A program made the translations under genes and the position numbers. A stretch of DNA of 64,000 nt from Eledone cirrhosa (Eukaryota). The notes beneath the pieces are model-generated. The model ran no database searches. It was given only the letters and a program-made list of their open reading frames with translations, and was not told the origin of the DNA. The stretch spans positions 30,132,001 through 30,196,000 of the forward strand of contig OZ024748.1 of assembly GCA_964016885.1 (NCBI GenBank). The letters are read 5' to 3'. Positions 25,301-56,851 of this stretch are shown piece after piece (positions within the stretch are counted from its first letter, which is position 1; each line of letters starts with the position of its first letter).

Positions 25301-26336
25301 AGAAAATATAAAAAAAATGTATTTGTTAGTTCAAATGTTTATATTATCTTTACTGCAAGACAGATCATTGTTAAAATGTGTAGTATCATTGCTTAACATA
25401 TCTAAAAATAAGTTTCTTAATCCAAATATTTATAATATCTTTATTAGTGAACAGATCATTCTGAAAATTTGGATTATTGGAGTAAAGACTTTAATTTTTA
25501 ATGTGATGCACTCATAGTGTTTGTTGCTTTGTACTTTCTAAGAATGTTTGAGTTAAATATCTGTAATTTTTAGGATCGTTTTTCCCATATTGGAGCTGAA
25601 GAGTTTGTCTGCGTCTGTGTTAAGGACTCTATCAATGGTGTAAGTATAATTATTTTAGTTTATTGATCAGGTTTCACTGATAGTTGCCATGGTAGTGATA
25701 GTGTGACACATTAGTACTTTAGTTACAACCTACTATAATTTAATGTGACTAATTAAAAATTTCATTGCCAATTAAGATATTGAATTCTCTATTCAGGCTT
25801 TGAGCTATTCTTGTCATAAATAACATAACCTATATATAACCTGTGTCTATCCTTTGTGAACCTGTCTCTATCTGTTGTACTCCTAAAGGAGAGCTAAACC
25901 AGACATGTCTAATTTTCTGTGCCCTTTTCCATATAAAGTATGAAACTAATAAGACTTTTTGTATCTCAGTTTTGTCATTTCCTTGATATGCAAATCTGGT
26001 TATCAGTGCAAATCTGGTTGATCAGTCTGCTAATATGCAAATCAGGCTGATCAATCACTGTATATTTTAGAAAATATCATATATTTTTACTAGCTCTGAC
26101 AGTTGGTCAGTGAACTGCACTGATGAAGGCTAATGCCCAGAAACATTAGTGTCTGCAGTTCTATTTACCTGCCAACACAAGAGCAAGAATGAGGGGCTCA
26201 TTCTACTGACATGGCTCTAAAAATGAGGCTGTTTGCATAATTGCAAACGAATCGAATATTATTATTAATATTCGAAAAACTCAGATTACATTTATTATAT
26301 TCAGCCTTGTAGAACGATAATTTTTTAAATTTTATT

Positions 26337-26370
<34 letters not shown>

Positions 26371-29300
26371 TTGTGTGTGTGAAGAGGGTTTAAATGATTT
26401 GATAATTGTGATATGTTCACCTGATGAACACACACACACACATGCATGGTTGCAGAAACACACACACATGCATGCATGCACACACATATGTGGGTTCGCA
26501 AACACACATGCATGTGTTCACAAACACACATGCACATACATACGTACACATGTACACAATGTTTCATTGCTAAATTATGTGTGTTTTTTTTTTTTAAACT
26601 TGAATATGTAACAGAAGTTTTGTTTCTTCTTTTTCTTCCACAGAATTGTACTGGCACCAAGTCCACTCCCAATTTGGAATCCTACATACAATGGTTCAAT
26701 AGACTGAGCTATTTTGTTGCCACAGAAATCTGTTCTGTAAGTCAGTTGTTTCGAGAATCTTGTTACTAAAATTATTTTTATATATAATGGAAGCACATGG
26801 CTTAGTGGTTACAGCATTGGCCTTGCAATCGAAAGGTTGTGAGTTCAATTCTCAGACTGGGTGATGTGTTGTTTCCTTGAGCAAGACACTTTATTTCATA
26901 TTGCTCCAGTTTACTCAGCTGTAGAAATGAGATGATAGGGATTGAGGTCCCTATCATTCCACTGCAAAGTGGTCGTGGAGGTGCCACGGCAAAAAAGCAC
27001 CCAGCACTCACTGTAAATGAGGTTGGTGTTAGGAAGGGCATCCAGCTGTAGAAATCAAGCCAGCATCAGTTCCCGTCCCACCCTTGCAAGCAGGGAAAAA
27101 GCGGACGTAAAATGAAATGATGATGATGATGATATACCATATTTGATGGCTTATAAAATGCACTATTTTCTCAAAAAAATTTCTCAGAAAATCACACATC
27201 TTATAAGGTCAAGTGTCAGTTTATAATATTTACTGTATTTGATATGGCTAATAAAGAAAGAGTTATAAGTATTGGTGGATTAACAGTAATGGGTAGACCA
27301 TTGGACAACCCTTGCAAGCAGGGAAAAGCGGATGATGATGATGTATATATGTATATATATATGTGTGTGTATATATATATATGTGTGTATATATATATAT
27401 GTGTGTATATATATGTATATATATATATATATATGTATGTATATATATGTATATATATGTATGTATATATAAAGAATTAATATCTAGTAACATATATATA
27501 CATACAGATGCATATCAATGCTAGCAAATATATAGGTTTTGTCTTAGTAACTTTGTGGTTCAATGCATGGGGCTGCAGAACAATAATATGAGAGACGTAA
27601 AATAAGAAAATTATAAAATTAACTTACTTACTAAAATTTCACTCCCAACTAATTAGTTTCTGAAATGGAATAAATATACTTTCCAAAGAAAATATAGAGA
27701 AGCATTTCGTCGTCAGGGAAGTCTATTCTCAGCTAAGTATCCAGGCAAAGCGTGGACTCTGGAAACTTATACAAAAATAATTCAGTGGATAGAAAATAGC
27801 AAAGCGTGGACTGAATTCCTAGCCATTGAGAAAATCACTGCCTACTGCGTCGGTGGCAAATTCAAAAAGAATCAATCACGTGACATTGAGGTCAATCAGT
27901 GGAAAGTGGTTTGTTAAGAAGACAGCGGCCTGCCTGCTACCATAGCAGCAGTCTTGGGCAATATTGCTCGACAAATAATTTGAAGATAATTATAAAGAAT
28001 TAATATCTAGTAACATATATATACATACAGATGCATATCAATGCTAGCAAATATATAGGTTTTGTCTTAGTAACTTTGTGGTTCAATGCATGGGGCTGCA
28101 GAACAATAATATGAGAGACGTAAAATAAGAAAATTATAAAATTAACTTACTTACTAAAATTTCACTCCCAACTAATTAGTTTCTGAAATGGAATAAATAT
28201 ACTTTCCAAAGAAAATATAGAGAAGCATTTCGTCGTCAGGGAAGTCTATTCTCAGCTAAGTATCCAGGCAAAGCGTGGACTCTGGAAACTTATACAAAAA
28301 TAATTCAGTGGATAGAAAATAGCAAAGCGTGGACTGAATTCCTATCCATTGAGAAAATCACTGCCTACTGCGTCGGTGGCAAATTCAAAAAGAATCAATC
28401 ACGTGACATCGAGGTCAATCAGTGGAAAGTGGTTTGTTAAGAAGACGGCGGCCTGCCTGCTACCATAGCAGCAGTCTTGGGCAATATTGCTCGACAAATA
28501 ATTTGGAGATAATTATAAAGAATTAATATCTAGTAACATATATATACATACAGATGCATATCAATGCTAGCAAATATATAGGTTTTGTCTTAGTAACTTT
28601 GTGGTTCAATGCATGGGGTTGCAGAACAATAATATGAGAGACGTAAAATAAGAAAATTATAAAATTAACTTTAGTAAGTAAGTTAATTTTATAATTTTCT
28701 TATTTTACGTCTCTCATATGTATGTATATATATGTATATATATGTATGTATATATATGTATGTGTATATATATATATATGTATGTATGTATATATATATG
28801 TATGTATATATATATGTATGTATATATATATATGTATATATGTATGTATGTATATCATCATCATCGTTTAACGTCCATGTTCCACGCTTGCATGGGTTTG
28901 GACGGGAGTTTTCCCACTTGAGGCAAAAGTGGTTGTCATTGCTCGCATAGGACTGTCTGGCGGGTTTTCTACAGCTGGATGCCCTTCCTAACACCAACCA
29001 CATTTACAGTGTGGGGCTGGGAGGTTTTTACCGTGTTGGCTACACAGCCACATTACAGCGTGGACTGTGTGTTTTTTGTCGTGACACCTACACGATCTCA
29101 TTTGTTTCGGCCTGGATGTTGTGGCACCAACATAACTTAACATTGAAAGGGGCGGTGTGGATGGGGTGGGGGTGGTGTGACGGGGGTGTATTTTGTTAGA
29201 GATGCCTGCTGACTGTAGTAGGTTTTACTTTGTATTTAGGTAAGGCGGGTCTTCTCTGTTACTGAGTACCGCCAAAGGTCTCGGTCCAGTGACATTGTCT

Positions 29301-30834
29301 TGGAGAGGTGTAAGTGTGCGAGGTCGGAATTTATCAGCTCGTCCCAGGTTTTACTGGGTCTGCCTACTCCGTGGCTACCGTCTATCTTTATTGCCCTGCA
29401 CTTTGTTATACAGCTGTCGTCTTTCATGCACATCACGTGACCATACCAACGTAGCCTTCTCTCGAGTAAACGACATCTGATCCCTCTTATTTCTAATTTT
29501 TTCCTTAGTTCGTTTATGCTTTGCCGTTCACATATATTACTATTACACATCCAGCGGAGCATGCAAGCTTCATTCCTCTCTAGTCTGCGTATATCCTCTG
29601 CACACAATGCCCAAGTCTCACTGCCATGCAACATTGCTGTTCGTATGCAGGCATCATACAACCTGCCTTTCATTTTTAGGGAGAACCCTTTAGCGGCTAA
29701 TAGTGGTATAAGCTCTCTGAACTTTTTCCATCCAGTTCTGACTCTAGCTACTGTACTTTCAGAGCACCCTCCCCCACTGCTGATTTTGTCACCCAGGTAA
29801 CGGAAGCTGTCCACTATTTCTATAGAACCCTCTGCGCAATTGAAAGAGCTAGTATTTTGTGGGCACTTGCTGCTACTTATTGCACCAGAGCACCGGCCAC
29901 ATGTAAAATCTGTGTTCTTAGTTAGCTTACCTGTGATTCCACTACATCTTTTATGCACCCATACTTTGCATTTGGGACATAAAATGGAGTTTCTACCTAC
30001 GCCTTTCCTACACACTGAGCATGGCCATTTCCCGGAAGGGACCGGCGCCTTATTTTCTTTCCTACAAACTAGAACTTTAGTAGTCTTAGCCAGGTTAATT
30101 TTAAAACCTTTTGATTCTAGGCCGTGCTTCCATGTTTGGAATTTCTTCTCTAGCTCGGCCATTGATTCAGCTATGAGCGTTAGATCATCTGCGTATAGGA
30201 GTTCCCATGGGCAGCCGGTCTTAAACTCCTCTGTTATAGCCTGAAGGGCAATAATAAATAGTAGGGGGCTAAGAACAGAGCCCTGATGGACACCAACTTT
30301 TACGCTAAACTCTTCACTATATTCGTTGTTAATTCTAACCTTGCTGACTGTTTCGATTAATTTAATGCCTCTATAGTTACTCCTATCTAGGGCGTCTCCT
30401 TTACCCTTGTAACAGTTAACGATGATGCTGCTACGCCAGTCCTTCGGAACAACCCCATTCTGTATGACTTGGTTTACTATCCGGGTGACCATGGTGTGTC
30501 CCACCGTTCCAGAGGCTTTCAGCATCTCTGCAACTATTTCCGAAGGCCCAGCCGCCTTACCCGTCTTCATATCTTTGATTGCCTTACTTATTATACTACC
30601 TTCGACTAACACTGCTGGTCCCTCTATTGGATCGATGTGGGGGAGACTGTCTTTCTCCCATTTATTCTCCTCATTTAGTAGCCTTTCGTAGTGACACTTC
30701 CAAGCTACCTTCTTATCAGCGTCAGTGATGGCAAGAACGCCATCATCGTTAAGTACACACATGTATGTATGTATATATATATATATGTATGTATATATAT
30801 ATATGTATGTATATATATATATATATGTATGTAT

Positions 30835-30868
<34 letters not shown>

Positions 30869-31280
30869 GTATGTATATATATAGATGATGATGAGGGAGC
30901 TTATAGATAGGACAACACACGCTGTCTTTTCGTGGGGTAAGTTTTTAATTAATTTTTGTATTCTGAAACATCAAAATACAACAATTTGTTGGTCACTGGA
31001 CTCGGGAATGTCACGACAGAAGTTTGTGGAAGTTACACAAATATTTTAGTATATTTTAGCAGAGCAATCCTTATTTATATTTTACATTTACTTACATCTC
31101 AATATAACATGGCTAAAATTCAAATTTTGCAAAGAGAAGAAAACGGTCAAATGAACTAGATACATCGCATCTACCCCCGCCACCACAATAACTTCTACAC
31201 TCTCTCCCCACCATCACATGTCATTACTTTATCTAGACTAAAGTCATCGACCTGTTGTCAAACTCTCTACTCTCTGTTGA

Positions 31281-31312
<32 letters not shown>

Positions 31313-33470
31313 GTAGGAGGTGAGTTTTATTGTAGTACAATAAAGCAATGCAGATATCGGATAAGAAGCACTCTACAGTTTGTAGGACTGGAGTATACAT
31401 AATATAAGATCAAAAGATGGTTAAAGGAGTTCCATGTATTTTATTATGCGCATTTCAAAAACAAACATCATCATGCAATAATATTTGTGTTTTCATCAGA
31501 TAAAACAGGAGAACATGATATGAAGGCTAAAAAACACTTGTGGATAATGCAGTTTTAAATCAACATATGAAAAGTGGTTTTAGATTGATGTGTGATATTG
31601 GGAAAAATATTTTATTTAGAGAGGGGGGGGTGGAAAGGATGAAAAAGGGGAGGAGATGAGAGGGAGCGATGGGTGATAGAGAGAAAGAGATAGTTTTTAT
31701 AACTGAGAGAAGATATATTGTTTTACATAGAGAGGTTGAAAACCGTTGGAAGATAATGTATAAATTAAAAGAATTTGAAAATTAACGAAGGGAAGATATG
31801 TACGAGGAAAAAATATTTTATTTAGGGAGGGGGGGGTGAAAAAAGGGGGAGGAGATGAGAGTGAAGGTGGAGAGGGAGAGATGGGTGATAGAGAGAAAGA
31901 GATAGTTTTTATAACTGAGAAAAGATATATTGTTTTACATAGAGAGGTTGAGAACCGTTGGAAGATAATGTATAAATTAAAAGAATTTGAAAATTAACGA
32001 AGGGAATTTATGTATGAAGATAGAGAGAAAAAATAATAATTGTGGATGAACGAACTCATTCTTAATACATATTAACTCTTTATTCGCACATATTATCAAT
32101 TCCTTCAATATACAAACTTTAACTTCACATTATTTTTCTCAAATCCTTCTACACACAAACCTTAATAATTTTTTCTCTTCATTAATTTTGAAATTGCCAC
32201 AATACTTATCAACATACACATTTTTTGACGTTAGAATATTCATCCACAATTATTATTTTTTCTCTCTATCTTCATACATAAATTCCCTTCGTTAATTTTC
32301 AAATTCTTTTAATTTATACATTATCTTCCAACGGTTCTCAACCTCTCTATGTAAAACAATATATCTTTTCTCAGTTATAAAAACTATCTCTTTCTCTCTA
32401 TCACCCATCTCTCCCTCTCCACCTTCACTCTCATCTCCTCCCCCTTTTTTCATCCTTTCCACCCCACCTCCTCCCTAAATAAAATATTTTTTCCTCGTAC
32501 ATATCTTCCCTTCGTTAATTTTCAAATTCTTTTAATTTATACATTATCTTCCAACGGTTTTCAACCTCTCTATGTAAAACAATATATCTTCTCTCAGTTA
32601 TAAAAACTATCTCTTTCTCTCTATCACCCATCTCTCCCTCTCATCTCCTCCCCTTTTTCATCCTTTCCCCCCCCTCTCTAAATAAAATATTTTTCCCAAT
32701 ATCACACATCAATCTAAAACCACTTTTCATATGTTGATTTAAAACTGCACTATCCACAAGTGTTTTTTAGCCTTCATATCATGTTCTCCTGTTTTATCTG
32801 ATGAAAACACAAATATTATTGCATGATGATGTTTGTTTTTGAAATGCGCATAATAAAATACATGGAACTCCTTTAACCATCTTTTGATCTTATATTATAT
32901 ATATATATGTATATGTGTGTATATACATCACTCAGTCAAACGACCAGATTTCAACCCCAACATCTACAACAACACCGTCACTAATGTTTACAGCAACAAC
33001 AGCTTCAGAATGAACTGAAATGAAAATTTACAACAACAACAACAGCGGCATCAAAAGATTTTTAAAAAACTAAAAAAAAAAATTAAAAAAAAAAACTCAA
33101 AATAACAAACCACACACGCACACAACAAAACAACAACATCAACTGCCACCACCACCACTACCGCCGCCGCCATCACCATCACCAGCGACCGGGCCTTAAG
33201 AAAACAACTTTAATAATAATTTTTCTGCTTTTGGCACGGATCCAGCGACTGGCCCAGCGCATTACTGGTACTCCCTTTTGTTGACTCCGTGGAGATGAAA
33301 GGCAAGTTTGACCTCGGCGGGATTTGAGCTCAGAGCGTGGAGAGCCATAACTCTATGCTGTAAAGCAATTATAATAATACTGGACTGTAGTACGATCGGC
33401 TTCAACTATATAAACTCTTGAAAGTCAACAGTTGACATAATCTTGTAATCTTGTATCAGTAATGACGGTA

Positions 33471-33504
<34 letters not shown>

Positions 33505-33946
33505 AAGTGAGTAGAGTAGCGTGTGTGTGTTTGTTTGTATGTATGAGTGTTGCTGTGTGCGCGCATATGTATGCGCGTGTGTGTATGTCGTACGTATAAG
33601 TGTCAATAAGTGATTTTTTTATTTTTTTTTTTTTTTTTTTTGCGTGGGGACATAGAAACAATCGGGCTGGATGCCCAATCGCGCAGTTAAACCACTGGGA
33701 GTGAAGAACCCCTAGCACTTGTCAGGGCATTCTTCTAGGAGAAGGCATCTCAGGAAACTGGGTTAACTCCGACATAAAACCTGCGGCTCAGTAGTTACCG
33801 ATGATGTTGATCTTTTCTTCTTTTCGGGTTATAGCTACTGTCGCTCAGAGAGTGGGATTGGCTCAGTGCACAGTCTTTCCTCACTTTAAAAATATTCGTC
33901 ACGCACAGGCATTGCACGAGTGCATTAATAGTTATTAATAGTGTAC

Positions 33947-33985
<39 letters not shown>

Positions 33986-36900
33986 TACTTTTTTTTTTTT
34001 TTTTTTTTCCCAATTCAATGATGTTCCAGAACAATATAGAAAAGATCATTGGCAATAAGGGCAGGGGCCCCAGGTTATCACAGCCTGGGCCCGCTCGTCA
34101 TCGTGCCATTGTAATAGAGCCAAACAAGGCATTTAGTCTTGGCTGCTGGAACGTACGGATGCTGTTTGACAGGGATTCCTTGGAGCGTCCTGAACGAAGG
34201 ACCGCTCTTGTTGCAAAGGAGCTTCGACGTTACAATCTTGACATCGTGGCTTTATCTGAGATGAGGTTAGCTGGAGATGGTCATCTTACGGAATTTTGTG
34301 GAGAATATACATTCTTCTGGAAAGGAAGAGATGAAGGAACCAGAAGAGAATCTGGGGTAGGATTTGCTGTTAAGACTGTACTTGTGAACAAATTAGAAGA
34401 ATTCCCAGTAGGGATTAGTAAGCGTCTTATGTCCATGAGAGTTCCGCTGGATAAGGGAAGATATGCTACCCTGGTGAGTGTGTATGCTCCAACTATGAGT
34501 TCTGTCGATGAGGAAAAGGTGTCCTTTTACCATGCCTTGAAAGGTGTTTTAAGAAATATCCCTCAGGCAGACAAAGTCATCGTGCTTGGTGACTTTAATG
34601 CTAGAGTGGGTAGGGATTTTAACACATGGAATGTAATCGGAAGGCATGGGGTGGGAAAGTGTAACAGCAATGGTATGCTCCTGCTGCAGATGTGTGAGGA
34701 GCTGGATCTGTGTGTTACCAACACCATGTTCCAACAAAAGAACAAATTCAAGACCACATGGATGCATCCTGCATCTAAGGAATGGCATCTTTTGGACTAC
34801 GTCCTAGTCAGGATGCGTGACAGACAGGATGTGCAGTGTGTTCATGTTCTTCGTGGAGCTGAGTGCTGGACGGACCACCGCCTGGTACACGCAAAAGTGA
34901 AACTAATCACTAAACGTAAAATCCGGGCTCCTGGTGTTGCCCTGCCCAAAAGATTGAATGCTGGTCGTCTTAAGGATAAAAATGTGAAGAGGACATTGGA
35001 AGAAGAGATGCAGGCTGCAGATCTTGGTGAGGATTGGCCGACCCTTGAAAAGTCGGTTTATGATGTAGGCAGGCGTGTTCTGGGATTGGCGCAGAGGAAA
35101 CATCAGGACTGGTTTGATGAGAATGATGTACATATAGAAGACTTGTTGGCTGATAAGAGGCGTGCTCTGTCACGCTACTTGACGGCAAAACCACAGGAGA
35201 GGAATACGTTGCATGAGGAACTCGGGGATGTAAAATCACGTGTTAGGCTGAGTCTTTCTCAGATGAAGGATCAGTGGTGGAGTGAGAAGGCTGGTGAGAT
35301 ACAAACTGCGTCTGATTCCAATAACACAAAGCTGTTGTACAGTCTCTTGCGTGGGGTTTATGGACCCTCTTCTTCTCTGGTGACACCGCTTCGCAGCAAG
35401 GATGGCAAAGAACTTCTTTGTGACTCACAAGGAATTCTACGAAGGTAGCAAGAGCACTTTGATGATCTTTTGAATCAGCCGTCTGTCGTCAGTGAAGATT
35501 TCCTCAATCTCATTCCAGAAAGTCCTGTGAAAGTAGCTCTCGCAGAACCTCCGACACTTGTGGAGGTTGCAGTGGCTATTTCGAAGCTGAACAGTGGAAG
35601 ATCTCCAGGTATGGATGGCATACATGCTGAGCTCCTACAATATGGTGGTGAGAGACTCCTGCAACATCTTCACTCTTTGTTTGGCAGGATATGGGCTAAT
35701 GAATCCGTACCTGAGGACTGGAGAGATGCAGTAATGGTGGTCTTGTACAAGGGAAAGGGTAACAGGAATGATTGTGGGAACTACAGAGGTATATCATTGC
35801 TTTCTGTCGTAGGGAAAGTTTTATGTAGAGTTCTTCTGGACCGTCTGCTGACACACATTGCAGATTGTGTTCTTCCTGAAAGTCAATCTGGTTTTCGTGC
35901 TGGACGCGGCACTACTGATATGATCTTCTCAGCTAGACAGCTCCAGGAGAAGTGCATGGAACAAGGCTTGGATCTGTATCAGGTTTTTGTCGATCTGACA
36001 AAAGCTTTCGATACTGTTAACAGAGATGCATTATGGAAGGTTCTCCAGAAACTTGGTTGCCCTGATAAGTTCCTTGCTTTAGTTAGGTCTTTCCATGACG
36101 ACATGAAGGCTTGGGTTAATGTCGGGGGTAACATGTCGGAGCCTATCTCAGTAAAAAATGGAGTGAAACAGGGGGATATTCCAGCACCGACCCTGTTTGC
36201 CATATACTTTGCAATGGTTTTCTGTATTGCATTCAGGAATTGCGAGCATGGTGTTTACATCCGATATCGAACCTCAGGCAGCATATTTAACATCAGGCGC
36301 TTTGCTGCAAAGACAAAAGTATTTACATCAGTCATAAGTGACCTCTTGTATGCAGATGATTGCGATCTTGTAGCACACACAGAGAGTGATGTGCAGCACA
36401 TTTTGAATGCATTTTCTGACGCTTGCACTGCCCTAGGATTGACTGTCAGTCTCAAGAAAACCGTTGTCATGTACCAACCTGCCCCTGGTAAGCAGTACAC
36501 TGAACCAAACATCTATGTGTATGGCAAACGACTTGGAGTGGTTGATCAGTTTGTCTACCTGGGAAGCACTGTCAATCGATACAGCAACCTTGACAGTGAA
36601 ATCTCACTTAGGATTAGGAAAGCAAGTGATGCTTTCGGAAAGCTAGAAAGGCAACTCTGGGGTCGGCGAGACATATGCAGGAGGACAAAGGTAAAGGTGT
36701 ACAGAGCATGTGTGCTCTCTTGTCTTCTTTATGCCTGCGAGACCTGGGTCACATATCGACACCACCTTAAGCAATTGGAGCATTTCCATCAGATGTGTCT
36801 CAGACGGATCCATGGCGTTCACTGGAGGGACCACATCAGTGATGTCGAGATTTTGGAAAGCTCTATGTGTGACAGTATAGAAGCTCTTGTGCTTAAGCAA

Positions 36901-39900
36901 CAACTCCGTTGGAGTGGTCACCTTGCCAGGATGAAGGATACTAGAATACCAAAACAACTCTTTTATGGAGAGTTGGTTAAAGGAAAACGACCGCCACATA
37001 AACCAAAAAAGAGGTATAAGGATTCCTTAAAAGCCTCTCTGAAAGACGCTAACATCTCTGCTGATACATGGGAGAATATTGCTGCTGATCGTAATAAATG
37101 GAGAAAGACTGTATATGAGGGAAAAGTTGCCTTTGAGGCATCTCGAATCGCATACGAGAAAGTAAAACAGGATGTGAGAAAGGGCATTGCTGTTGCACTT
37201 CCAGACGGTGAGGGTCCTCCTATGGTGCTGATATGCAGCGTATGTGCGAGACTCTGCCTAAGCAAAGCTGGACTCGGAAGTCATAAAGTACGACCAGTGG
37301 TTGACTATCAGGCTGCTGTCGGAGATGCTACTCATCATGCTTGCCAAACATGTGGTAGAGAATGTAAATCAGCAGGAGGGCTCAAGCGACATGCAAAAGT
37401 ACACGAACTCCAACCACAGCCGACTATTCCCAGTAAATGTTTTGGTTGCCGACTTGTGCAAGACATTTTAGATCATTGGCTGGGCTAAAAAGCCACATTC
37501 GATCGCAGCGCTGTTAGTTGCTATCATGTGTGTGTGTGTGTAGATATGCGTGTGTGTGTGTATATATATATGTATATGTGTATTATTATTGTTGTTGTCG
37601 TTATTATTATTGTTGTTATTATTATTATTATTATTAATGTATGTGTGTGTATATGTGCGTGTGAGTGTGTGTGTGTGTGTGTGTATATATGTATGTATAT
37701 ATATATATATATATTTATTTATTTTTTTTTATTTTCTTTTATTTTTTATTTATTATTATTATTATTTTTTTTTTTTTCTTTCTCCTCGTGCAATGGCCAT
37801 ACTCGATAACGAGGGGGCAGCCATCATATATCTGTATGTATATATATATGTTCTTCTGGTTTTATAATTCCACAAAGTTTTACCAATAGAGAGAGAGAGT
37901 CGGTTTCTAAGATAGACACAAGACTCTCTCATTGGAATTTACACATCAACTAGGTAGATATGTATGTATGCATGCATGTGTAGATATGGATGTTATTGTA
38001 TGTGTGGATGTGTGTTTTGAGTTGTATGTGTGCATGTGTATATGCTTTGTATCTGTACATGTGTATATGCAGTTATTAGATGCACAATTTTTGGAATGTT
38101 TTACATATTTTTACTGTTCCATTAATGGATTGTACTTGTAGTTTCCTAACTAGTTCTGTTCTTTCTGTTCCTGTGAAGCCTCAAGATTTGTATTGAGGCA
38201 GTTACTAACATATCCCAGTGCCCCAATAATTACAGGCATAAATCTGAAGGTGTAATCAGGGTGGAGTATCTGCAGATTTCTCATCAGTTCTGCATAAATA
38301 TTCTCCTTTTCACTAATCTTTGATATTATATTGGCATCTGCTGGGCAGCTAATTTCCACTACTGTGCATGTTTTCTTCTCCCTGTCCCATATCATAATAT
38401 CTGGTCTGTTATGCCTGCATTTTATTGGGGTTTTTACTGGAACATTCCACCAGTACTCTTTCATATTATGTACATGGATGTCTTCCACATTGTTGTAGCT
38501 TTTAATGTGTTTATTATCGGGGCTATCTTTTTTACGAACTGCATTGTTTTGGCCACTACATCATGCCTCATAGGTAGATAGTACCGCGATGACATCTTTG
38601 GGCAGCTGCTGATGACATGGGTAATATCCTCGATGTTAGTTCTGCAGAGTCTGCACTTGTTATCACATCTAGGTGTTTTGCCTGCATCCCTATCTCTTTT
38701 GTGAATCAGGTATTTTGTGCTAATCTCCTGTTCTTGGATTGCAAAAGCGTATCCTTCAAAGTGGGAGCCAATATAGCGGTTGTTGGTCCAAGATAGACTA
38801 CTTTCCTTATCTATATTACTCTCACTCTGGAGCTTCCTGGCAACATATCCATGCATGATTTTTTGCTGATAGGCATGCAGTTTTTCATCCATGGATTCAC
38901 TGCGATACTGCTGAGCGACATCCCTGGGTGTGAGTTTTTGATTATCACACAGGGAATATCTCTCAAGGAGTTCCTTCCCAACTCTCATGATCTTATCTGT
39001 TTCATGCAGATAGACTTGCTCGAGAAGCAGGCTCCTACGCTTCGAGGTTCGTAGATGTTGTCGGAGAGATATGATGCGACATTCAAATGTTGTCTGGACT
39101 GATGTTAGGCCTCTGCTTCCCTGCTTACGTTTCAAGTAAAGGCGGTCTATGTCACTGTTGATGTGGAAGTTTCCGGGGTTGTTCAGTATTTTTCGAGTTC
39201 CAACATCAACTGCTCGGATTTCGTCTATCGTCCAATTGAGTATTCCAAACGTTGGTGTTAGGACAGGCACAGCAAACACATTGTAAGCCACTGTTTTGTT
39301 TTGCGCAGAGAGTTCCGATGACCAGATCTTTCTTAATCGGGTGTAGTATTCCCTGGTTACGCGTTCTTTATTACAGATACCATTATAGGATATGTTCTCA
39401 TCTATCCCCAGGTATCTGTAGCAGTCCTCATCAGATATCGGTGAAACAGTTAGACCATTGATGACAATGTTGCTAGATTGGGTTGTTGTTTTTCCCCGCT
39501 TTACAGTCATGTATGAGCATTTATCTTGGCCAAACTCCATTCCTATATCCTTTGAGAACGTTGTAACCAGGTCAAGATTTTTCTTCATCCCATCCATGTT
39601 CTTGGCATAGAGTTTCAGATCGTCCACAAAGAAGTTATGGGTTAGGTTCGTATTTCTGTCTTCCTGTGAGCCAATGATGTATCCCTCACATTTCTTGAGC
39701 AGAAAGGACAAGGGGTTTAATGACAAGATTAACAATATCACAGAGAGACTGTCCCCCTGAAATATACACCTGCAATATTTTATTTTATCAGTGAAAATAG
39801 AGTCCTCCCTCTCTGTATTTAACCTTAGGATAGTAGCCCAAGAAGAAAACAGCCTCTCTATGGCTCTGACAATAATGTCTGAGACATTATTATATATTGT

Positions 39901-40902: not shown

Positions 40903-40945
<43 letters not shown>

Positions 40946-40946
40946 G

Positions 40947-40977
<31 letters not shown>

Positions 40978-43896: not shown

Positions 43897-43941
<45 letters not shown>

Positions 43942-44596
43942 GTATATATGTATATGTATATATATATGTGTATATGTATATGTATAAATATATATGTGTA
44001 TATGTATGTATATATATATATGTGTATATGTATGTATATGTATATATATATATGTGTATATGTATGTATATGTATATATATATGTGTATATGTATGTATA
44101 TGCATATATATGTGTGTATATGTATGTATATATATATGTGAATATGTATATGTATGTGTATATATATGTGAATATGTATATGTATGTGTATGTGTATATA
44201 TATGTGAATATGTATATGTATATGTATGTATATATATATGTGAATATGTATATGTATATGTATGTATATATATATGTGAATATGTATATGTATGTATATG
44301 TATATATATATGTGTATATGTATATATGTATATATATATGAATATGTATATATATATATATGTATATATATATATGTGTATATATGTATATATATATGTG
44401 TATATATATGTGTATATATGTACATATATATGTGTATATATGTATATATATATGTGTATATATGTATATATATATGTGTATATATATGTGTATATATATA
44501 TATGTATATATATATGTGTATATATATATATATGTATATATGTGTATATATATATATATGTATATATGTGTATATATATATATATGTATATATGTG

Positions 44597-44627
<31 letters not shown>

Positions 44628-45040
44628 GTATATATCTGTATATATATATATGTATATATCTGTATATATATATATGTATATATGTGTATATATATATATA
44701 TATGTATATATGTGTATATATATATATATATGTATATATGTGTATATATATATATATGTATATATGTGTATATATATATATGTATATATGTGTATATATA
44801 TATATGTATATATGTGTATATATATATATGTATATATGTGTATATATATATATATATGTATATATGTGTATATATATATATATGTATATATGTGTGTATA
44901 TATATATATGTATATATGTGTATATATATGTATATATGTGTATATATATATGTATATATGTGTATATATATGTATATATGTGTATATATATATATATGTA
45001 TATATGTGTATGTGTATATATATGTATATGTATATATGTG

Positions 45041-45071
<31 letters not shown>

Positions 45072-45604
45072 GTGTATATGTATATATATGTATATATGTG
45101 TATATATGTGTATATGTATATATATGTATGTGTATATATGTGTATATATATATATATGTATGTGTATATATGTATATATGTGTGTAAATGTATATATGTG
45201 TGTATATGTGTATATATATATGTATATATATGTATGTGTATATATGTATATATATGTGTGTGTATGTGTGTATATGTGTATATATATGTGTATATATGTG
45301 TATATATCTATATGTGTATATATGTATATATATGTGTATATATGTATATATATGTGTATATATGTGCATATATGTATATATATGTGTATATATGTATATA
45401 ATATGTATATAATATGTATATATATGTGTATATATGTATATATATGTGTATATGTGTATATGTATATATATATATATATATGTGTATATGTATGTATATA
45501 TATGTATATGTATGTATGTATATATATGTATATGTATGTATGTATATATATGTATATGTATGTATGTATGTATATGTATGTATATGTATGTATATATATG
45601 TATG

Positions 45605-45638
<34 letters not shown>

Positions 45639-45810
45639 TATATATTGCCCCATCAATCAGTGAACTATACATAGGCCTCATCTTATCACCTATGACATGA
45701 CGTGAATAAGAATCAACGACTTACGTCAGTGAAGAAACCTACTTTGTCTTATGGCTGATTTCTGTCGTAGATAGGGTATGCCTCTCCTTCAACCCCAAAC
45801 ATTATATATA

Positions 45811-45845
<35 letters not shown>

Positions 45846-48242
45846 GTGTGTGTGTCTATATATAATAATTGTTTCTACATTAGGCACAAGGCCAGCAATT
45901 ACCCAGTGCATTACTGGTACTTTATTTTATCGACCCCGTAAGGATGAAAGGCAAAGTCAACCTCGGCGGGATTTGAACTCAGATCGTAAAGGGACGTAAC
46001 TATGTTGGAAAGCATGGCATCCGACCCTCTACTGATACTGCCAATCCACCGCCCACCGTGTCTGTATATAATAATATATGTGGACCTGACTAAATGGTAT
46101 CTCCCAATGAGGATGACAGACCGATTCACATCCCTACCCCACCCATAGCTCATACAGCACACTAATTCCTACCCCATCCATAGCTAATACAGCACACTAA
46201 TCCCTACCCCATCCATAGCTCATACAGCACACTAATCCCTACCCCACCCATAGCTAATACAGCACACTAATCCCGACCCCACCCATAGCTCATACAGCAC
46301 ACTAATTCCTACCCCATCCATAGCTAATACAGCACACTAATCCCTACCCCATCCATAGCTCAAACAGCACACTAATCCCTACCCCACCCATAGCTCAAAC
46401 AGCACACTAATCCCTACCCCATCCATAGCTCAAACAGCACACTAATCCCTACCCCACCCATAGCTCATACCGCACACTAATCCCTACCCCACCCATAGCT
46501 CATACAGCACACTAATCCCTACCCCACCCATAGCTCAAACAGCACACTAATCCCTACCCCACCCATAGCTCAAACAGCACACTAATCCCTACCCCATCCA
46601 TAGCTCATACAGCACACTAATCCCTACCCCACCCATAGCTCAAACAGCACACTAATCCCTACCCCATCCATAGCTCATACAGCACACTAATCCCTACCCC
46701 ATCCATAGCTCAAACAGCACACTAATCCCTACCCCATCCATAGCTCATACAGCACACTAATCCCTACCCCACCCATAGCTCAAACAGCACACTAATCCCT
46801 ACCCCATCCATAGCTCATACAGCACACTAATCCCTACCCCATCCATAGCTCATACAGCACACTAATCCCTACCCCATCCATAGCTCATACAGCACACTAA
46901 TCCCTACCCCACCCATAGCTCAAACAGCACACTAATCCCTACCCCACCCATAGCTCAAACAGCACACTAATCCCTACCCCATCCATAGCTCAAACAGCAC
47001 ACTAATCCCTACCCCACCCATAGCTCATACAGCACACTAATCCCTACCCCATCCATAGCTCATACAGCACACTAATCCCTACCCCACCCATAGCTCAAAC
47101 AGCACACTAATCCCTACCCCACCATAGCTCATACAGCACACTAATCCCTACCCCATCCATAGCTCAAACAGCACACTAATCCCTACCCCACCCATAGCTC
47201 AAACAGCACACTAATCCCTACCCCATCCATAGCTCAAACAGCACACTAATCCCTACCCCACCCATAGCTCATACCGCACACTAATCCCTACCCCACCCAT
47301 AGCTCAAACAGCACACTAATCCCTACCCCACCCATAGCTCAAACAGCACACTAATCCCTACCCCACCCATAGCTCATACCGCACACTAATCCCTACCCCA
47401 CCCATAGCTCATACAGCACACTAATCCCTACCCCACCCATAGCTCAAACAGCACACTAATCCCTACCCCACCCATAGCTCAAACAGCACACTAATCCCTA
47501 CCCCACCCATAGCTCATACAGCACACTAATCCCTACCCCACCCATAGCTCATACAGCACACTAATCCCTACCCCACCCATAGCTCAAACAGCACACTAAT
47601 CCCTACCCCACCCATAGCTCAAACAGCACACTAATCCCTACCCCACCCATAGCTCAAACAGCACACTAATTCCTATTATTTCTCAGACACACCACATATG
47701 TATGTGTACAAACAGTGAATTCATGAAATGATATCCTTTATTGAAATCAGTTTAGCAAACATTCATACATACACACCCATACAGTCATACACATACACAT
47801 ACTATCACATACCTATACAGTCACACACACACACATACAATCGCACACGCATACACACAAATAGAATCTCACACAGACACACCCATATAATCACTCCCAT
47901 GTACACACATCTATACACACACACACAGACACAATCTACACATAGCCATACAATCTACACACATACATTGATAACAAGTGGCTTAGTTATTTCCATGTAT
48001 CTCTAGGAATCCCAGTCCTTACTTAGTCACAACAGTCAATGTACTCTATCCTGTTTGACTTCAATATTTGACATTATCTGAGGTCGCTGACATAACACCT
48101 TGTATCTAGAAATATCTGAGGAAAAGCTGTTCTAATTATAATTAACTATTTACTTACTAAATATTCTGTCCCAAAGCCTAAACCACAGTGAATAAAAGAC
48201 TACCCCTTGATCAGGATACCAATTGATCTCAGTATGGTATAT

Positions 48243-48295
<53 letters not shown>

Positions 48296-48424
48296 AGATA
48301 AATAGATAGATAGATATATCTATCTATCTATCTATCTATCTATCTAACTATCCCCCTTTGTATTTGTCCCCTTCTTTTGTGCCCCTGTGGCTAATAAAGA
48401 AATATATCTATCTATCTATATATA

Positions 48425-48465
<41 letters not shown>

Positions 48466-51400
48466 GATTCTTTTTTTCAAATACCACTTTGGAAGAAGAA
48501 TCAGGATGGAGAGAGAGGTGCTGTACCCCAGCAAGTTTTATGAAAGGTGGGTGAAAGTGGCGAGAATGGCCCGAGTGAATGGGCCTTCTCTCTATATCAG
48601 CCTGTAGATTGAGGAAAAGGAAGAGGAGAGGAAAGGAGTACAAGCTCTTCGTACTCCTGGAGATGAGGGTTGCACATTTTTTTCGGGGGTATGTGTTACC
48701 CATATAAACTGTCTCCCTCTATTGGGGAAAATCGACTAACTTTTAAATTCCATCTGTGATAACATTTTACACGTTTTTATTGTATGTAAACTTCCCCCTT
48801 TGTATTTGTCCCCTTCTTTTGTGCCCCTGTGGCTAATAAAGAAATCTATCTATCTATCTATCTCTATATATAATGTAGGAGGTGAGTTTTATTGTAGTAC
48901 AGTAAAGCAATGCAGATATCGGATAAGAAGCACTCTACAGTTTGTGGGACTGGAGTATGCATAATATAAGATCAAAAGATGGTTAAAGGAGTTCCATATA
49001 TATTATTATGCGCATTTCAAAAACAAACATCATCAAGCAATAATATTTGTGTTTTCATCAGATAAAACAGGAGAACATGATATGAAGGCTAAAAAACACT
49101 TGTGGATAGTGCAGTTTTAAATCAACATAGATATGTTGATTTAAAACTGCACTATCCACAAGTGTTTTTTAGCCTTCATATCATGTTCTCCTGTTTTATC
49201 TGATGAAAACACAAATATTATTGCTTGATGTTGTTTGTTTTTGAAATGCGCATAATAAAATATATGGAACTCCTTTAACCATCTTTTGATCTTATATTAT
49301 CTCTATATATATATATATATATAGTATTTACGTATCGAGAAAGAGAGAAAAAGGAGGGATAGGTGGTACATATAGTTATTTGCCAAGTAGCGTATGCCAA
49401 AGGTGCTCGATACTAGTGCCGGCAGTATTAAATATTCGAAGTGTTAATATTTAGTGGGCTAGAGAGTTAGCAGAGCGTAAGCACGTGGAAAAGTAAAAAA
49501 TCGGAGAATAGACCGTTAAAACATGTTTATTTGAAATATCACCTACGTACGTTTCGCCCAGTTGGGCTTCTCAAGGGCATAAATAATCACAAGTGTTCCT
49601 TATATAGTTCGGAAAGAGCTTTGGGGGTTAAATCTACATCAAGATTCATTGCTCTAGAAACCCCCCCCCTCATAAAACTAACGTTATAGTAAGCCATACC
49701 TATAACCGATCACGCGGCGACCTCGTTGAAGTCGGATATAATAGAATAGATAACCGCACCAAAGATCACGTCCCCGGCGACGGTGAACACTGTAGATTAC
49801 TCAAACTATTCCCCTATTACAAAACCAACAAAGGCGACGGCCTACTACCAACGCCTTCCAACCAACATCTTCGTGTACATAAACATGGAAGAGGTAGAAA
49901 GAGTGCACCCGAGCATAAAGTGAAAGGGGTACCGAACGGGCGACAGCGCATTAACACACATAAGAGCGGTCACTTAGATGGAACCACCCGTAGCAAAAGT
50001 ACAAGGACACGTAATCGCCACCGTAACTTCCTATGGTTCCACCCCCCCCCCCCCCTACTCTCGGAGTGTGGCCTCCAACATACCCCGGATATTCTTCGAA
50101 GCCTTAGAGAAGAACTTCCCACCCAACCATAGGTATAGAAAAATTCTTAATAGGAACAATATAAAAATATCCTTCTCTACTACTCCTAACCTAGCAGACA
50201 TCATAGGAACAACGAACCACAGTAAGATCACCAAGACACAGCACCTCGACACAGACGCACCTACACCTGACAATAACTATATCGGCCTTAACAACTCCCT
50301 GACAGCATCCAATAGTGTTGGCAACGGCATCCGCAGACGCAACCAGAATGACCGCGAAGTGACTGGGGAACACGCAGAACATGACGTGCGGAATAACAAT
50401 CGCACCATCCCGCGTGCTGTGGGTTGTAATTGTGTTAACGACAGCTGCGGTAGCGTAGGTAACAACGTAGGCAGCAACAATGATAGCCTTACCGTGGGAA
50501 ATAGACGGAACCGCGACAGAAATTGCAACTGCCGCGACAGAGGACGCTGCCCCCTTAGAGGATACTGCTTGACTGATAGGGTTATATATAGATGCACTAT
50601 TACTAGCCACAATAGCGTTAAACATTATATAGGGGCCACCTCCGGCCCGTTCAAAATTAGGTTTCGAACACATCTCCACTCTTTCACAAATAGAAAACTA
50701 AGGCACTCCACTTCGCTCGCGGACTACATCACATCACTAAAGGACTTAAACATCAGCTTCTCCACGCACTGGGAGATTGTCGGCAGGGCTGCACCGTACA
50801 ACTTCAAGAGGAAATGCGATCTTTGCCTCATGGAGCTCTACCACATCATAACTGCACCCCACGAGCTCATCAACAGCAGAGCTGAAACAGCGATAAGTTG
50901 TACACATTGCTTAAAAATATCCTTCTTTAGATGGGTTAAGAATGAAGAGTGAAATAGTACACTGGATCTCCCTGCAACAAGTCTTAACACCCCGGCGGGC
51001 AGGCGCAGCAAAATAACACCCAGAAAACAATCCTTGCATACCAGACCCAGCCTCAGACAAACGGATGCGGCAAAAAAAAAAAAAAAAAAAATTATCCGGG
51101 AAAGACTGCCCTAACACCGGCCAGAGTTACCTCCCTTGACCTGCTGCAAAATCAAAACAAGATATTTTTGCGAGCAATGAATCTTGATGTAGATTTAACC
51201 CCCAAAACTCTTTCCGAACTATATAAGGAACACTTGTGATTATTTATGCCCTTGAGAAACCCAACTGGGCGAAACGTACGTAGGTGATATTTTAAATAAA
51301 CATGTTTTAACGGTCTATTCTCCGATTTTTTACTTTCCCACGTGCTTACGCTCTGCTAACTCTCTAGCCCACTAAATATTAACACTTCGAATATTTAATA

Positions 51401-51510
51401 CTGCTGGCACTAGTATCGAGAACCTTTGGCATACGCTACTTGGCAAATAACTATATGTATCACCTATCCCTCCTTTTTCTCTCTTTCTCGATACGTAAAT
51501 ACTATATATC

Positions 51511-51596
<86 letters not shown>

Positions 51597-52207
51597 TGGT
51601 GCCACAACATCCAGGCCGAAACAAATGAGATTGTGTAGGTGTCACGACAAAAAACAAACACACAGTCCACGCTGTAATGTGGCCGTGTAGGCAACACGGT
51701 AAAAACCTCCCAGTCCCACACTGTAAATGTGGTTGGTGTTAGGAAGGGCATCCAGCTGTAGAAAACCCGCCAGACAGTCCTATGCGAGGAAGACAACCAC
51801 TCTTGCCTCAAGTGGGAAAACTCCCGTCCAAACCCATGCAAGTGTGGAACATGGACGTTAAACGATGATGATGATAATGATGATGGCTTAGTGGTTAGAG
51901 CATTGGTCTTGCAATCGAAAGGTTGTGAGTTCAATTCTCAGACCGGGTAATGTGTTGTTTCCTTGAGCAAGACACTTTATTTCATATTGCTCCAGTTTAC
52001 TCAGCTGTAGAAATGAGATGATAGGGACTGGGGTCCATATCATTCCACTGCAAGGTGGTCGTGGAGGTGCCACGGCAAAAAAGCACCCAGCACTCACTGT
52101 AAATGAGATTGGTGTTAGGAAGGGCATCCAGCTGTAGAAATCAAGCCAGAATCAGTTCCTGTCACACCCTTGCAAACAGGGAAAAGCGGATGTAAAATGA
52201 AATGATG

Positions 52208-52275
<68 letters not shown>

Positions 52276-54420
52276 TGATTCAGTGAATTACTAGTGGTAG
52301 TACCAATATGAGCACTTGATACACAGGCAGTCTATATATGAGGTCAATAATCAATAAAAACATTGAAACAAAACTTTGTTTTTTCTTACTATATATATAT
52401 ATATATATATATATAACGAAGGAAATGTGGTAAGGAACCAGGTGGACCATAACGCACCAAAGTACTCAATACTTAGGGTAGTAGAGTGGGTAATAGGAAC
52501 GAGTAGGACCCTGACGGCTGAGCTCAAGCCGTTTCAACGGCTAATTCTAGTCCTGAATTAGCCGTCGAAACGGCTTGAGCTCAGCCGTCGGGGTCCTACT
52601 CGTTCCTATATATATATATATATCATCATCATCATTTTACGTCCGCTTTTCCCTGCTTGCAAGGGTGGGACGGGAACTGATTCTGGCTTGATTTCTACAG
52701 CTGGATGTCCTTCTTAACACCAACCTCATTTACAGTGAGTGCTGGGTACTTTTTTCTCGTGGCACCTCCACGACCACTGTGCAGTGGAATGATATGGACC
52801 CCAGTCCCTATCATCTCATTTCTACAGTTGAGTAAACTGGAGCAATGTGAAATAAAGTGTCTTGCTCAAGGAAACAACACATCACCTCGTCTGAGAATTG
52901 AACTCACAACCTTTCGATTGCAAGGCCAATGCTCTAACCACTAAGCCATGTGCCTCCATATATATAATGCTATATATAGTATATTACATATAGTATATCT
53001 GTTATATAATGTTATATTTATAATATATGTTTTAAAGTTTGTGTCAAAACTAAAGTCATCAGGTCAGAGTTTATCATATGCCAGTTTCATTTGTGTGAAA
53101 CAACTGAGAATACAAGATGTGACTCTGGACTTCACCTATGTCAACTTTGCCTTTTATCCTTATGGGGTCAATAAAATAAAGTACCAGTAATACACTGGGA
53201 TAATTGCTGGCCTTGTGCCAAAAGTAGAAAGGTTGTTATTGTTGTTGTTATTCCGCTTTTTGTGGAAGGGACGTGCTTCCATGGTCAGACAATCCATCTG
53301 CTCTTAGCACCCGTTGCGTGGAGGACTGGGTATGCCGTGGCTGATGATGCGCAAACACGCGCTGAGGCTGCGACATCTCTGGTAGTGGTACTTCCTTGAT
53401 GGTCAACAGGTGTGGTCTCTGTTTGCCAGATGTGTTTTTCCCCAACTTGTCTCATTAACGGAGCTACAGTCCTGGATCAGGAAAAAGACCGAGGGATAGC
53501 GCTTAGAAGCTGGAATGTCTCCAATAGCTCACAGCCTTCTACCAGCTTACCAGCTGGGCATTAGTATCGGTGGAACATCCACCTCGGCATTCTATAGAGG
53601 ACTATTGGAAGGGAAGAACGACAACGTTCTTGGGGAGACAGCTGGGCGTCGATGACGATCAGCTGTTCGATCTCTTCGGGAGAACTTTCAGCCCGGCGCC
53701 TCTGGACAACTTTCAGAAATCCCTGGCCTGGCAATGCTACCGGGGAGCATTGCCAGTTCGAGATAAGCTCTACAGGCACGGAAGTGTCGTCAACCAAACC
53801 TATCCGAGATGTGCACAGAGCAACGAAACCGTTGTGCACGCATTTGTTCAGTGTCCGAGCATTGCTGACTTGTGGAGCTATGTCAAACATTTGCTGTCAC
53901 GTGTAGGATGGATCCGGTTATCGACCGAATCCATTGTGCAGATAGCCCCGCCGTCCTCCTTTAAGGAGAAGGAAGGGCAGGCATGCTGGCCATGGCGAAA
54001 GAGATTATATGGTGGATAAGGTTGAAAGGATTGAAGATGGACACTTTCCTCGTCGGTGAATCCCTGATTAACTTTTTCATATTTCACTTGAAGAGGAAAA
54101 TCAGGGTGGAGAGGCAAGTGCTGGCTTCTAGTAAGTTTGTTGAATGGTGGGTGAAAGTGGCGAACCTGGTCCAAATGAATGGGCCCGTTCTAAGTATGCT
54201 CCTGTAGACAGAGGAGTGGGAGAACTGAGAGAGGGTGCTTGCCCTGGTGGTCAGGGTGGCCGTGGTCTTTTGTGTGGTTTTCACCATGAGTGACTCTTGG
54301 AGGTTTCCCCCTATTTGGGGAAATTTTGTTGTTTTAATTTTTTTGATTTGTTTTTACACATTTCTATCTTCTTGCTTTTCTTCATGTTAGCTCTTGTGGC
54401 CAATAAAGAAAGCATTATTA

Positions 54421-54455
<35 letters not shown>

Positions 54456-56808
54456 TTACAGCATCTGAAGAAGAAGAAGCGTGTGTGTATGATAGACTAC
54501 TTCATAGATGTTGCCAAAGAATGCATCAATATTGGGAACTTTAATTCCCTTGTAGCTATTATTGGTAAGTACACAGTTTATAACCATGTGGCTGTGTGTG
54601 TGTTGTTGTTTGTGCATGCCTGTGTGCTTGTGTGTGTGTGTGGCTGTGCCTGTATGTAGTTGCGTGTGTGAGTGCATGTATGACAGTACATAGCTTAGTG
54701 ATTAGGGCATTTGGCTCAATAGTATGGCCCTCAGTTTATTCACTTTCCAGCTGTGCACCCAGCCCTCACTATAAATGAGGTTGGTGTTAGGAAGGGCATC
54801 CAGTTGTAGAAATCAAGCCAGAATCAGTTCCTGTATGAGCAAGGTAAGGTCAACCGACCGGACACTGCCCACAATAGGACAACCTCTCTAACCCATGCTA
54901 GCGTGGAAGAACGGACGTAAAGCGGTGATGATGATATATGTCCAAAATATATATATGAGTTAGAAGTTGGCCTGGCCACACATTTCTTCATCTCTCTTGA
55001 CTTTTGAAAATCATGAAATTTGTGAAACCAGTAAAGTCATAAATTATTGTAAATAAACCTTCTGAAAGACTTCAACTTCTTTTTCCTATATATATAGTGG
55101 TAGGAAACTCTCAGACGACTTGGACAGCATGAGGTCTTCAGAGCAGAAACCCCACTTAATTGAGTGTTGTGGCCCTTATCTTCTCATGATTAAGTTGATA
55201 TTTGAAACATACTTTAACAAAAATTTCTTACCTAAAATTATGATAGAAGGTTTAAATTTAATAGAATTATGATAGAAGGTTTAAATAAATGGCATTGTAT
55301 CATAAATCCAGGTGCAGTTTCCATTGGGTTGGTATAGAAAAGATTGGATCAAATTCTTTTTGTATTATTTTCATTTCTGAATATTTCTAAAAGAAGACAC
55401 CCTCCTAATTTCTTCCACCCCCTTTTTTTTCAGCTGGAATGAACATGAGTCCTGTTGCAAGACTCAAGAAAACGGTAAGACATTCCTCTTTATTTCTTTT
55501 ATCTTCTCTCGTATCAATTTACCATATTTTCTGGCATCAAAGATATTTCGTCATCAACACTCCACCATTTTGAGTTACTAAATTTAGAAAAAAAGCTTAT
55601 TATATATCCTTATTTGTAAATATTTATGAATATGACCATTACCACCACAATACATATGACCATTACTACCACCACCACCATGACCACCACAATCCATATG
55701 ACCACCACCACCATGACCACAATCCATATGACCACCACTATCATCGTTGCTGTCACCACCACCACCATAACCACCACTATGATCGTTGCTGTCACCACCA
55801 CCACCATAACCACCACTATCATTGTTGCTATCACCACCACCACCCTTCAGGTGAGAGTATCAGGGGGAGGAGATGAATCACAGAATGATTAGTTCTGTTA
55901 CATGCAACAATAAACCATTAGTCAACAGTCACTCACTGCCCTCTCCACATATTTCTGTGTGTGTGTATAAGTGTGTTTGTGAGGACATGTAAGATCATTT
56001 CGGCAAGTGAATGTGTGGGTGCATATGTGTAAGAGCACATATGTGTGTGTGTATGCCTCCTTGTACATGGTTAAATATTTATAAGGGTATGTGTGTGTGT
56101 GTGTTTATATATATCATCATCAGCATCATCATCACTATTTAATGTCCATTTTCCATGCTAGCATGGTGTGTGTGTGTGTGTGCGTGTGTGTGTTCGGGGT
56201 CAGGAAAGAGCAAATAAGGTTTATTTTTCAACCTAATCCCTGGAAATAAACAATGCAGGTGGCCGTATAACTGCAGAAAATTTTTTTTTTTAATTATTCA
56301 CTCTACATGGCTGAATACAATAAATGTAATCTTGAGTTTTTCGAATATTAATAATAATTGTTTCTACTTTAGGCACAAGGCCAGCAATTACCCAGTACAT
56401 TACTGGTACTTTATTTTATCGACCCCGTAAGGATGAAAGGCAAAGTTAACCTCGGCGGGATTTGAACTCAGACTGTAAAGGGACGTAACTATGCTAGAAA
56501 GCATGGCGTCCAACCCTCTACCGATACTGCCAATTCACCGCCCTCGAATATTAATAATAATAATATTCAATTCGTTTAGAAAATATATATTTTCCCTAGC
56601 TCTGACAGTTAGCAGGTGAACAGTGAACTGCACTGATGAAGGGTGATTCCCAGAAACATTGATGTCTGCAGTTCTGTTTACATGCCAACACAAAGGCAAG
56701 AATGAGGTGCTCATTCTACTGACATGGCTTTAAAAAAGAGGCTGTTTGCATAATTGCAAACGAATTGAATATTATTATTATTAATATTCGAAAAACTCAG
56801 ATTACATT

Positions 56809-56851
<43 letters not shown>

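Follow-up and report, generated by a model that had tools for sequence, protein, structure and literature searches.

Two hammerhead motifs beside RasGEF exons

The window analysed here is a 64,000-nt stretch of the Eledone cirrhosa genome (assembly GCA_964016885.1, contig OZ024748.1, positions 30,132,001 to 30,196,000), and feature positions below are those of the window. On its forward strand, two type I hammerhead ribozyme motifs lie among the exons of a gene with a RasGEF domain, at 26112..26161 and 56625..56674. As the first-pass annotation had described, both have an intact CUGAUGA/GAAA/GUC core and an 8-bp stem I, with predicted cuts after C26153 and C56666. The C3-A9, G12-A15.1 and U16.1-H17 core elements and three stems were found, with both ends in stem I. 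Motif 1 has two private changes in stem II, and a 7-nt deletion weakens the helix that extends its stem I. Motif 2 has private changes in stems II and III. The core pattern has three matches in the window against 0.21 expected by chance, and none of 100 shuffles reaches three; the third match lacks stems, and no other stem-complete hammerhead was found in the window. One stem-complete hammerhead lies in 50 kb of neighbouring DNA, which holds no further copy of the ~430-nt repeat described below. A search against Rfam, which had been proposed as a check, did not recover the motifs (cmscan, E<=1; no hammerhead among 108 matches).

Both motifs belong to a small non-coding repeat. Its existence was noted before, but its extent is greater than was stated: copy 1 spans 25984-26321, and copy 2 spans 56293-56810, including an inverted arm that holds a nested element. 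Copy 1 (25984..26321, plus strand) is a 5′-truncated monomer covering family positions 70-430, and it ends in a ~25-nt tail of the Penelope-like element (PLE) type followed by AT-rich and (TA)n sequence. It has ~5% substitutions relative to its own subfamily as well as small deletions. The forward arm of copy 2 (56575..56810, plus strand, family 171-403) has a short 3′ end running into (TA)n. It stands head-to-head with the inner part of an inverted arm (56544..56577, minus strand), the outer part of which carries the tail (56293..56358, minus strand, family 367-430). Between these parts lies an unrelated short interspersed nuclear element (SINE; 56360..56543, minus strand) with a ~17-bp target duplication, which seems to be tRNA-like, judging from its box motifs. 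The same SINE has recurrently inserted at an ATTATT site around family position ~370, and 43 of 298 segments of the family adjoin it. Copies 1 and 2 are 88% identical across 239 nt.

The RasGEF-domain exon downstream of copy 1 lies at 26644..26736 (plus strand; PF00617, E 5.9e-5), and the next, with approximate limits, at 54450..54566 (plus strand, PF00617 region). A splice-site scan predicted the host exon downstream of copy 2 at 56966..57004 (plus strand) and further exons at 55434-55474, 57906-58001, 58617-58684, and 59363-59390. A weak PF00617 match was found at 58617-58682 (E 0.011) and none at 57906-58001. By resemblance, the gene may be a RasGEF1 gene. The orientation claimed for the motifs is right: both are on the strand of the RasGEF exons, and the next exon follows after 483 and 292 nt, respectively. 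Copy 2 is located between predicted exons, and copy 1 is taken as intronic because the exon that follows it starts inside the RasGEF domain.

A family of hammerhead-bearing insertions

The genome is 3.0 Gb in size, and 2,823 first-look candidates for the family were found in it. The 34-nt hammerhead pattern has 1,305 exact matches, and two subfamily 20-mers have 1,085 and 3,151 (4,236 in total); the reversed controls gave 0 in both cases. Extrapolated with ~5% divergence, these counts correspond to roughly 6,000-8,000 hammerhead-bearing segments genome-wide. The monomer is ~430 nt in length with 38-39% GC, and the tandem spacing is 437-444. The longest sense frame on the ribozyme strand has 36-56 codons, and no open reading frame (ORF) was found on that strand. 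A non-coding, low-GC unit of 150-450 bp with one type I hammerhead is the make-up of a retrozyme. With thousands of copies, PLE-type insertions and no ORF on the ribozyme strand, the proposal of a ribozyme-bearing mobile RNA family related to retrozymes and to the pseudo-long terminal repeats (pLTRs) of Penelope elements was well founded. At family positions 74-147 (window 25987-26048), three octamer-like ATGCA(A/G)AT motifs sit within short internal repeats that differ in number from copy to copy; they may be an internal promoter element.

I analysed 142 insertions at 161 loci, which were picked by best BLAST score, hammerhead pattern or 20-mers and de-duplicated by sequence; overall, ~230 insertions of the thousands were read. 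An inverted arm is present in 80 insertions and a head-to-tail partial tandem in 34, while 49 have neither. The 3′ ends cluster at two places ~25 nt apart, either ~404-409 (short) or ~426-430 (tailed). Among the short ends, 96 of 107 run into a microsatellite. Inverted insertions mostly combine the two kinds of outer end, short on one side and tailed on the other (61 of 79). The tail length equals the gap between the two start sites of reverse transcriptase (RT) described in the available text of PMC11167929. Arms within one insertion share rare variants more often (44/856) than random pairs do (205/28,735). In 13 of 35 partial tandems, the upstream arm continues far beyond the upstream cut site, and several include both motifs. 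Of the 54 segments that reach the monomer start, 36 have a tail of the family itself in front of them and 0 a PLE ORF; the others continue into host, TA or inverted sequence, and never into a shared ORF. The unit is therefore non-autonomous and closed on itself. The family shows 5′ truncation, partial tandems, inverted arms, a tail at one end and a microsatellite ((TA)n) target, as Penelope-like elements do, and it contains no RT and GIY-YIG ORF of an autonomous PLE. Truncated 5′ ends, inverted arms and tailed ends are given as a PLE signature in the available parts of PMC8557442 and PMC11167929.

The family belongs to a known class, the PLE-dependent non-LTR retrozymes. According to the accessible text of PMC7229834 and of a preprint (bioRxiv 10.64898/2026.07.22.740005), metazoan non-LTR retrozymes likewise have a low-GC non-coding unit of 150-450 bp with one type I hammerhead. 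They occur in thousands of copies, including a mollusc example (a mussel retrozyme with ~5,000 copies, PMC7229834), many copies are solo, many are intronic, and they are proposed to be non-autonomous PLE derivatives. In contrast, partial tandems and inverted arms dominate in the present family, and no three-unit array was seen. The insertion anatomy resembles that of the Chlamys non-autonomous elements such as MRC1 (PMC8557442) and fits the two RT starts of Poseidon (PMC11167929), as far as these are described in the available text. However, the tail is ~25 nt here and 30-40 nt in Chlamys, and the 3′ end is not shared with the candidate partner introduced below, whereas the Chlamys elements have the same 3′ ends as their partner. 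No description of this particular family, or of the pile-up of 5′ ends described below, was found in the literature searched, and the available text of PMC8967140 makes no mention of ribozymes.

Other hammerhead families were noticed in the genome. A second one has a ~424-bp monomer and 16,190 exact 23-mer matches (L376-L405; e.g. 9.968-9.972 Mb). It forms runs of up to 8 units as well as inverted arms, and is more of a classical retrozyme. Two further hammerhead-bearing families of the PLE type have 7,724 and 28,284 exact matches (L346-L375 and L406-L475).

Ribozyme structure and decay

The differences between the two window copies were first read as compensatory changes. I therefore set them against 84 copies that span the ribozyme and were not selected for it, obtained from 201 distinct sites among the listed 20-mer matches. 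The family stem II is GGGU-RAU-ACCC, exact in 37 of the 84 copies, and stem III is ACAUUAGUGU, exact in 56. Copy 1 has a G>C change (1/84 copies) and an A>G change (0/84) in stem II. In register, its stem II has a C.C mismatch; only by slipping to a 3-bp pairing that leaves one C bulged can the stem be rescued. In copy 2, an A>U change in stem II (4/84) removes a U-A pair, and stem III has an AG>GA swap (0/84). The alignment thus shows private, pair-breaking changes in each window copy, and the differences between copies 1 and 2 are private decay, not covariation. The self-complementarity noted for both stem III 10-mers was confirmed in silico, where they self-dimerise at -8.8 and -8.0 kcal/mol.

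A core kept no better than its flanks had been named in advance as one part of a refutation of the ribozyme reading, the other part being no cleavage as monomer or dimer. The first part is what was found. Mismatches amount to 49/992 (4.9%) in the core and 403/7222 (5.6%) in the flanks of the 84 copies (p=0.46). Two other counts agree (39/630 vs 711/9538 and 34/807 vs 684/13844), and conservation of the core above the flanks was found in none of the three. A core that decays like its flanks is expected for dead-on-arrival copies. The core is intact in 51 of the 84 copies, where 42 were expected. Pairing is kept by 12 of 18 common variants and by 240 of 1,009 private variants (p=1.7e-4), as judged on the predicted fold of the majority sequence, which itself leans towards pairing. 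One true G-C>A-U swap was found, and it is located outside the ribozyme. On this predicted fold, the variants would show selection at the level of source copies, with structure retained only among subfamily-level variants.

An unusual A.A at 10.1/11.1 had also been pointed out. The A/A is present, but it is more plausibly explained by a normal G10.1-C11.1 pair with one additional base on either side. An extra nucleotide after A9, a G10.1-C11.1 pair and a palindromic stem III make the motif a hammerhead of the PLE type, and PMC4209133 names an additional base between A9 and G10.1 as characteristic of the hammerheads of PLEs. The family has one more A between C11.1 and G12, and stem II does not close directly on G12 as in a regular type I hammerhead. 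Stem II is flanked by U/U in several hammerhead families of the genome. Three of them have it at the same places, and one, a PLE family with an RT/GIY-YIG ORF, has its like-built hammerhead directly 3′ of that ORF. Besides the type I fold and the features already named, the pLTR hammerheads of endonuclease-positive (EN+) PLEs share with the family that they are mostly decayed solos, judging from the available text of PMC4209133. They differ in that the present family has a longer stem I (8 bp, continued by a long helix), a palindrome of 10 nt in stem III, no attached ORF and, before G12, another extra base. In the predictions, folding is strong in three stretches of the monomer (z -5 to -9), and the ribozyme is seated on a long helix (z -6.5).

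Proposed spread of the repeat and its alternatives

It is very probable that the two motifs are decayed copies of a ~430-nt hammerhead repeat, likely spread in trans by PLE proteins, probably of the Neptune type. Tandem or circular monomer RNA would be bound by the PLE protein, and the PLE endonuclease (GIY-YIG) would nick (TA)n DNA. Reverse transcription would start at two internal sites, ~404-409 and ~426-430, giving short and tailed ends, and its early stop or template switch would give truncations, inverted arms and chimeras. The hammerhead may serve the RNA cycle of the element itself by slow cutting, probably dimer- or protein-assisted, with selection in source copies only.

A candidate partner was found among the PLEs of the genome, for which there are 10,596 first-look candidates with GIY-YIG, 150 of them scored. 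These have an RT and the CxxxxCxxC linker of Neptune/Nematis. One Neptune-type subfamily adjoins the repeat at the 5′ joint in 2 of the 142 insertions (L092, head-to-head, and L194, head-to-tail), and 1 of 29 further RT loci of this subfamily is joined to the repeat (L262, head-to-head). There is no TA repeat at the joint in the junctions L092/L211, L262/L344, and L194. A first look gave 342 candidates for the RT stretch of the subfamily, whose insertions lie in (TA)n and have short and tailed ends of their own. The ages are similar, at ~4-5% from consensus for the repeat family and ~2-6% for the Neptune-type subfamily. L092 and L262 show no special closeness among the copies, with 7 variants shared between them and 79 unshared. 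I consider this subfamily, somewhat more readily than not, to be the true mobiliser of the repeat. At L202, the tail end of the repeat adjoins another PLE family. No canonical hammerhead was found in the last ~230 nt of the candidate partner (L211:1575-4830 and L344), where only a CCGACGA...GAAA remnant without stems was seen.

Several points weigh against spread by a Neptune-type partner or against an active ribozyme. The repeat has no sequence similarity to the 3′ end of the candidate partner, and a true source PLE was not found in the sampled loci. This differs from the pLTR-derived retrozymes of bioRxiv 10.64898/2026.07.22.740005. In the sampled loci no homologous pLTR of an autonomous PLE was found, and the candidate partner is indicated by chimeric joints. 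The Neptune breakpoints of L092 and L262 lie within a few bases of each other and are perhaps not independent, and neighbouring elements could also come to form such joints through deletion or recombination. None of the 142 insertions is an array of at least three units, the largest being ~1.8 units. The lowest-energy fold of the hammerhead region is non-catalytic, with the core paired to stem III (-16.4 vs -10.2 kcal/mol), and the predicted cleavage would have to tolerate the extra A before G12. A gap of 6 kcal/mol between this fold and the catalytic monomer is consistent with cutting that is slow and helped by a dimer or a protein. Dimers of PLE hammerheads are reviewed in PMC6765202.

The template step may differ from this scheme. 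In a variant, the family would be a classical rolling-circle retrozyme, in which an abundant hammerhead-closed circular RNA is the template and arrays are its product. Its size, 38-39% GC and strong folding fit the retrozymes in the available text of PMC7229834, the tandem upstream arms that read past the cut (13/35) need a ligated or uncut template, and the sister ~424-bp family forms runs of 8 units. However, the present family stops at ~1.8 units, uncut tandem transcripts explain the read-through equally well, and in PMC11167929 a Poseidon PLE worked mainly on uncut RNA in vitro. I hold rolling-circle templating to be a minority possibility.

The distribution of 5′ ends bears on whether the RNA was cut. 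Among 201 tracts, 52 of 179 at risk have their 5′ end in the 20 nt 3′ of the cut, against 22/201 just downstream and 18/127 just upstream. For host-only joints, the counts are 19/70 against 7/77 downstream (p=0.005) and 8/51 upstream (p=0.18), and 10 nt on either side of the cut give 13/64 against 3/51 (p=0.03). A local palindrome obscures some of the inverted joints, and most tracts read through the cut site. The pile-up is not a general PLE feature, as three other hammerhead families have 3/44, 1/21, and 0/37 (4/102 in total) in a comparison of 126 sites read out of >52,000 matches. One of these families has a pile-up of its own, 60-100 nt upstream of the cut at a local hairpin (22/38), and the repeat family has a weak local hairpin at its own pile-up. 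Thus, fold-back or stalling is the likelier cause, and a cleavage footprint is a tentative reading at best. In PMC11167929, as far as available, the PLE hammerhead was dispensable in vitro and no cut-site reads were found. That the hammerhead cut the transposition template in vivo and, together with this, that a sequence-unrelated Neptune-type PLE mobilised the repeat in trans, as recorded in the chimeras, is doubtful. If true, hammerhead action in vivo during PLE-type retrotransposition would be evidenced in the genome itself, and a retrozyme would be matched to its partner by junctions rather than homology.

It is improbable that the repeat is nothing but a 3′ tail (pLTR) left by truncation of an autonomous PLE still to be found. 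Hammerheads in truncated PLE tails are frequent in the genome and in print (PMC4209133), and only the ~230 insertions were sampled from thousands. However, the monomer start leads to the family's own tail (36/54) or to host, TA or inverted sequence without a shared ORF, and no PLE ORF abuts it at the 161 loci. The family was found as a pLTR in 0 of 50 GIY-YIG loci and 0 of 55 Neptune loci (of the 10,596 first-look candidates).

Nothing marks the two window copies as preserved; they lie ~5% from consensus and have stem-breaking changes, which is not conservation above the neutral rate. The ultraconserved intronic hammerheads of amniotes are few and conserved. The present ones are also intronic, sense-strand and type I, but high-copy and decaying at a neutral rate. 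Two copies per 64 kb exceed the ~0.15 expected by my arithmetic, but the window was flagged for exactly that feature, and the genome has tens of thousands of similar hammerhead-bearing insertions. The suggestion that the motifs could cut the host transcript found no support for cutting of RasGEF pre-mRNA beyond orientation, which has a 1-in-4 chance. In Xenopus, introns hold >40% of the retrozyme copies, and cleavage was seen for 1 of the 9 dimers tested (10.64898/2026.07.22.740005). It is most improbable that the host has retained the two ribozymes to cut nascent RasGEF transcripts and so adjust splicing or output: both motifs are sense-strand, core-intact and <500 nt from an exon, and such roles have been published for self-cleaving ribozymes in introns, but each copy diverges from its subfamily like any other copy, with private stem-breaking changes, 51 of 84 random copies also keep the core, the motifs are 30 kb apart with spliced exons between them, and PLE-type hammerheads cleave weakly as monomers (available text of PMC4209133 and of the preprint, with its one active dimer in nine). 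Regulation of the host by the two motifs is unlikely, and the copies in the RasGEF introns are likely passengers.

Other elements were noticed in the window. A 1,152-codon open frame at 6333-9791 shares 68% identity across 590 aa with a frame at another genomic locus that includes an RT, and it is likely a long interspersed nuclear element (LINE), to judge by this resemblance. A tandem array at 21900-25400 has ~93 copies of a 36-bp unit and is open in several frames. A near-perfect hairpin of ~100 bp at 49080-49181, with a below-threshold match to a microRNA model, is probably a small inverted-repeat element. Fragments at 50050-50934 resemble the GIY-YIG-bearing frame of a PLE of another clade.

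The family adds an invertebrate case for animal retrozymes as PLE parasites, an idea examined mainly in vertebrates according to the available text of 10.64898/2026.07.22.740005. The candidate partner for the repeat is a testable proposal, and the thousands of datable 5′ ends would allow a census on whether cut RNA ever templates insertion.

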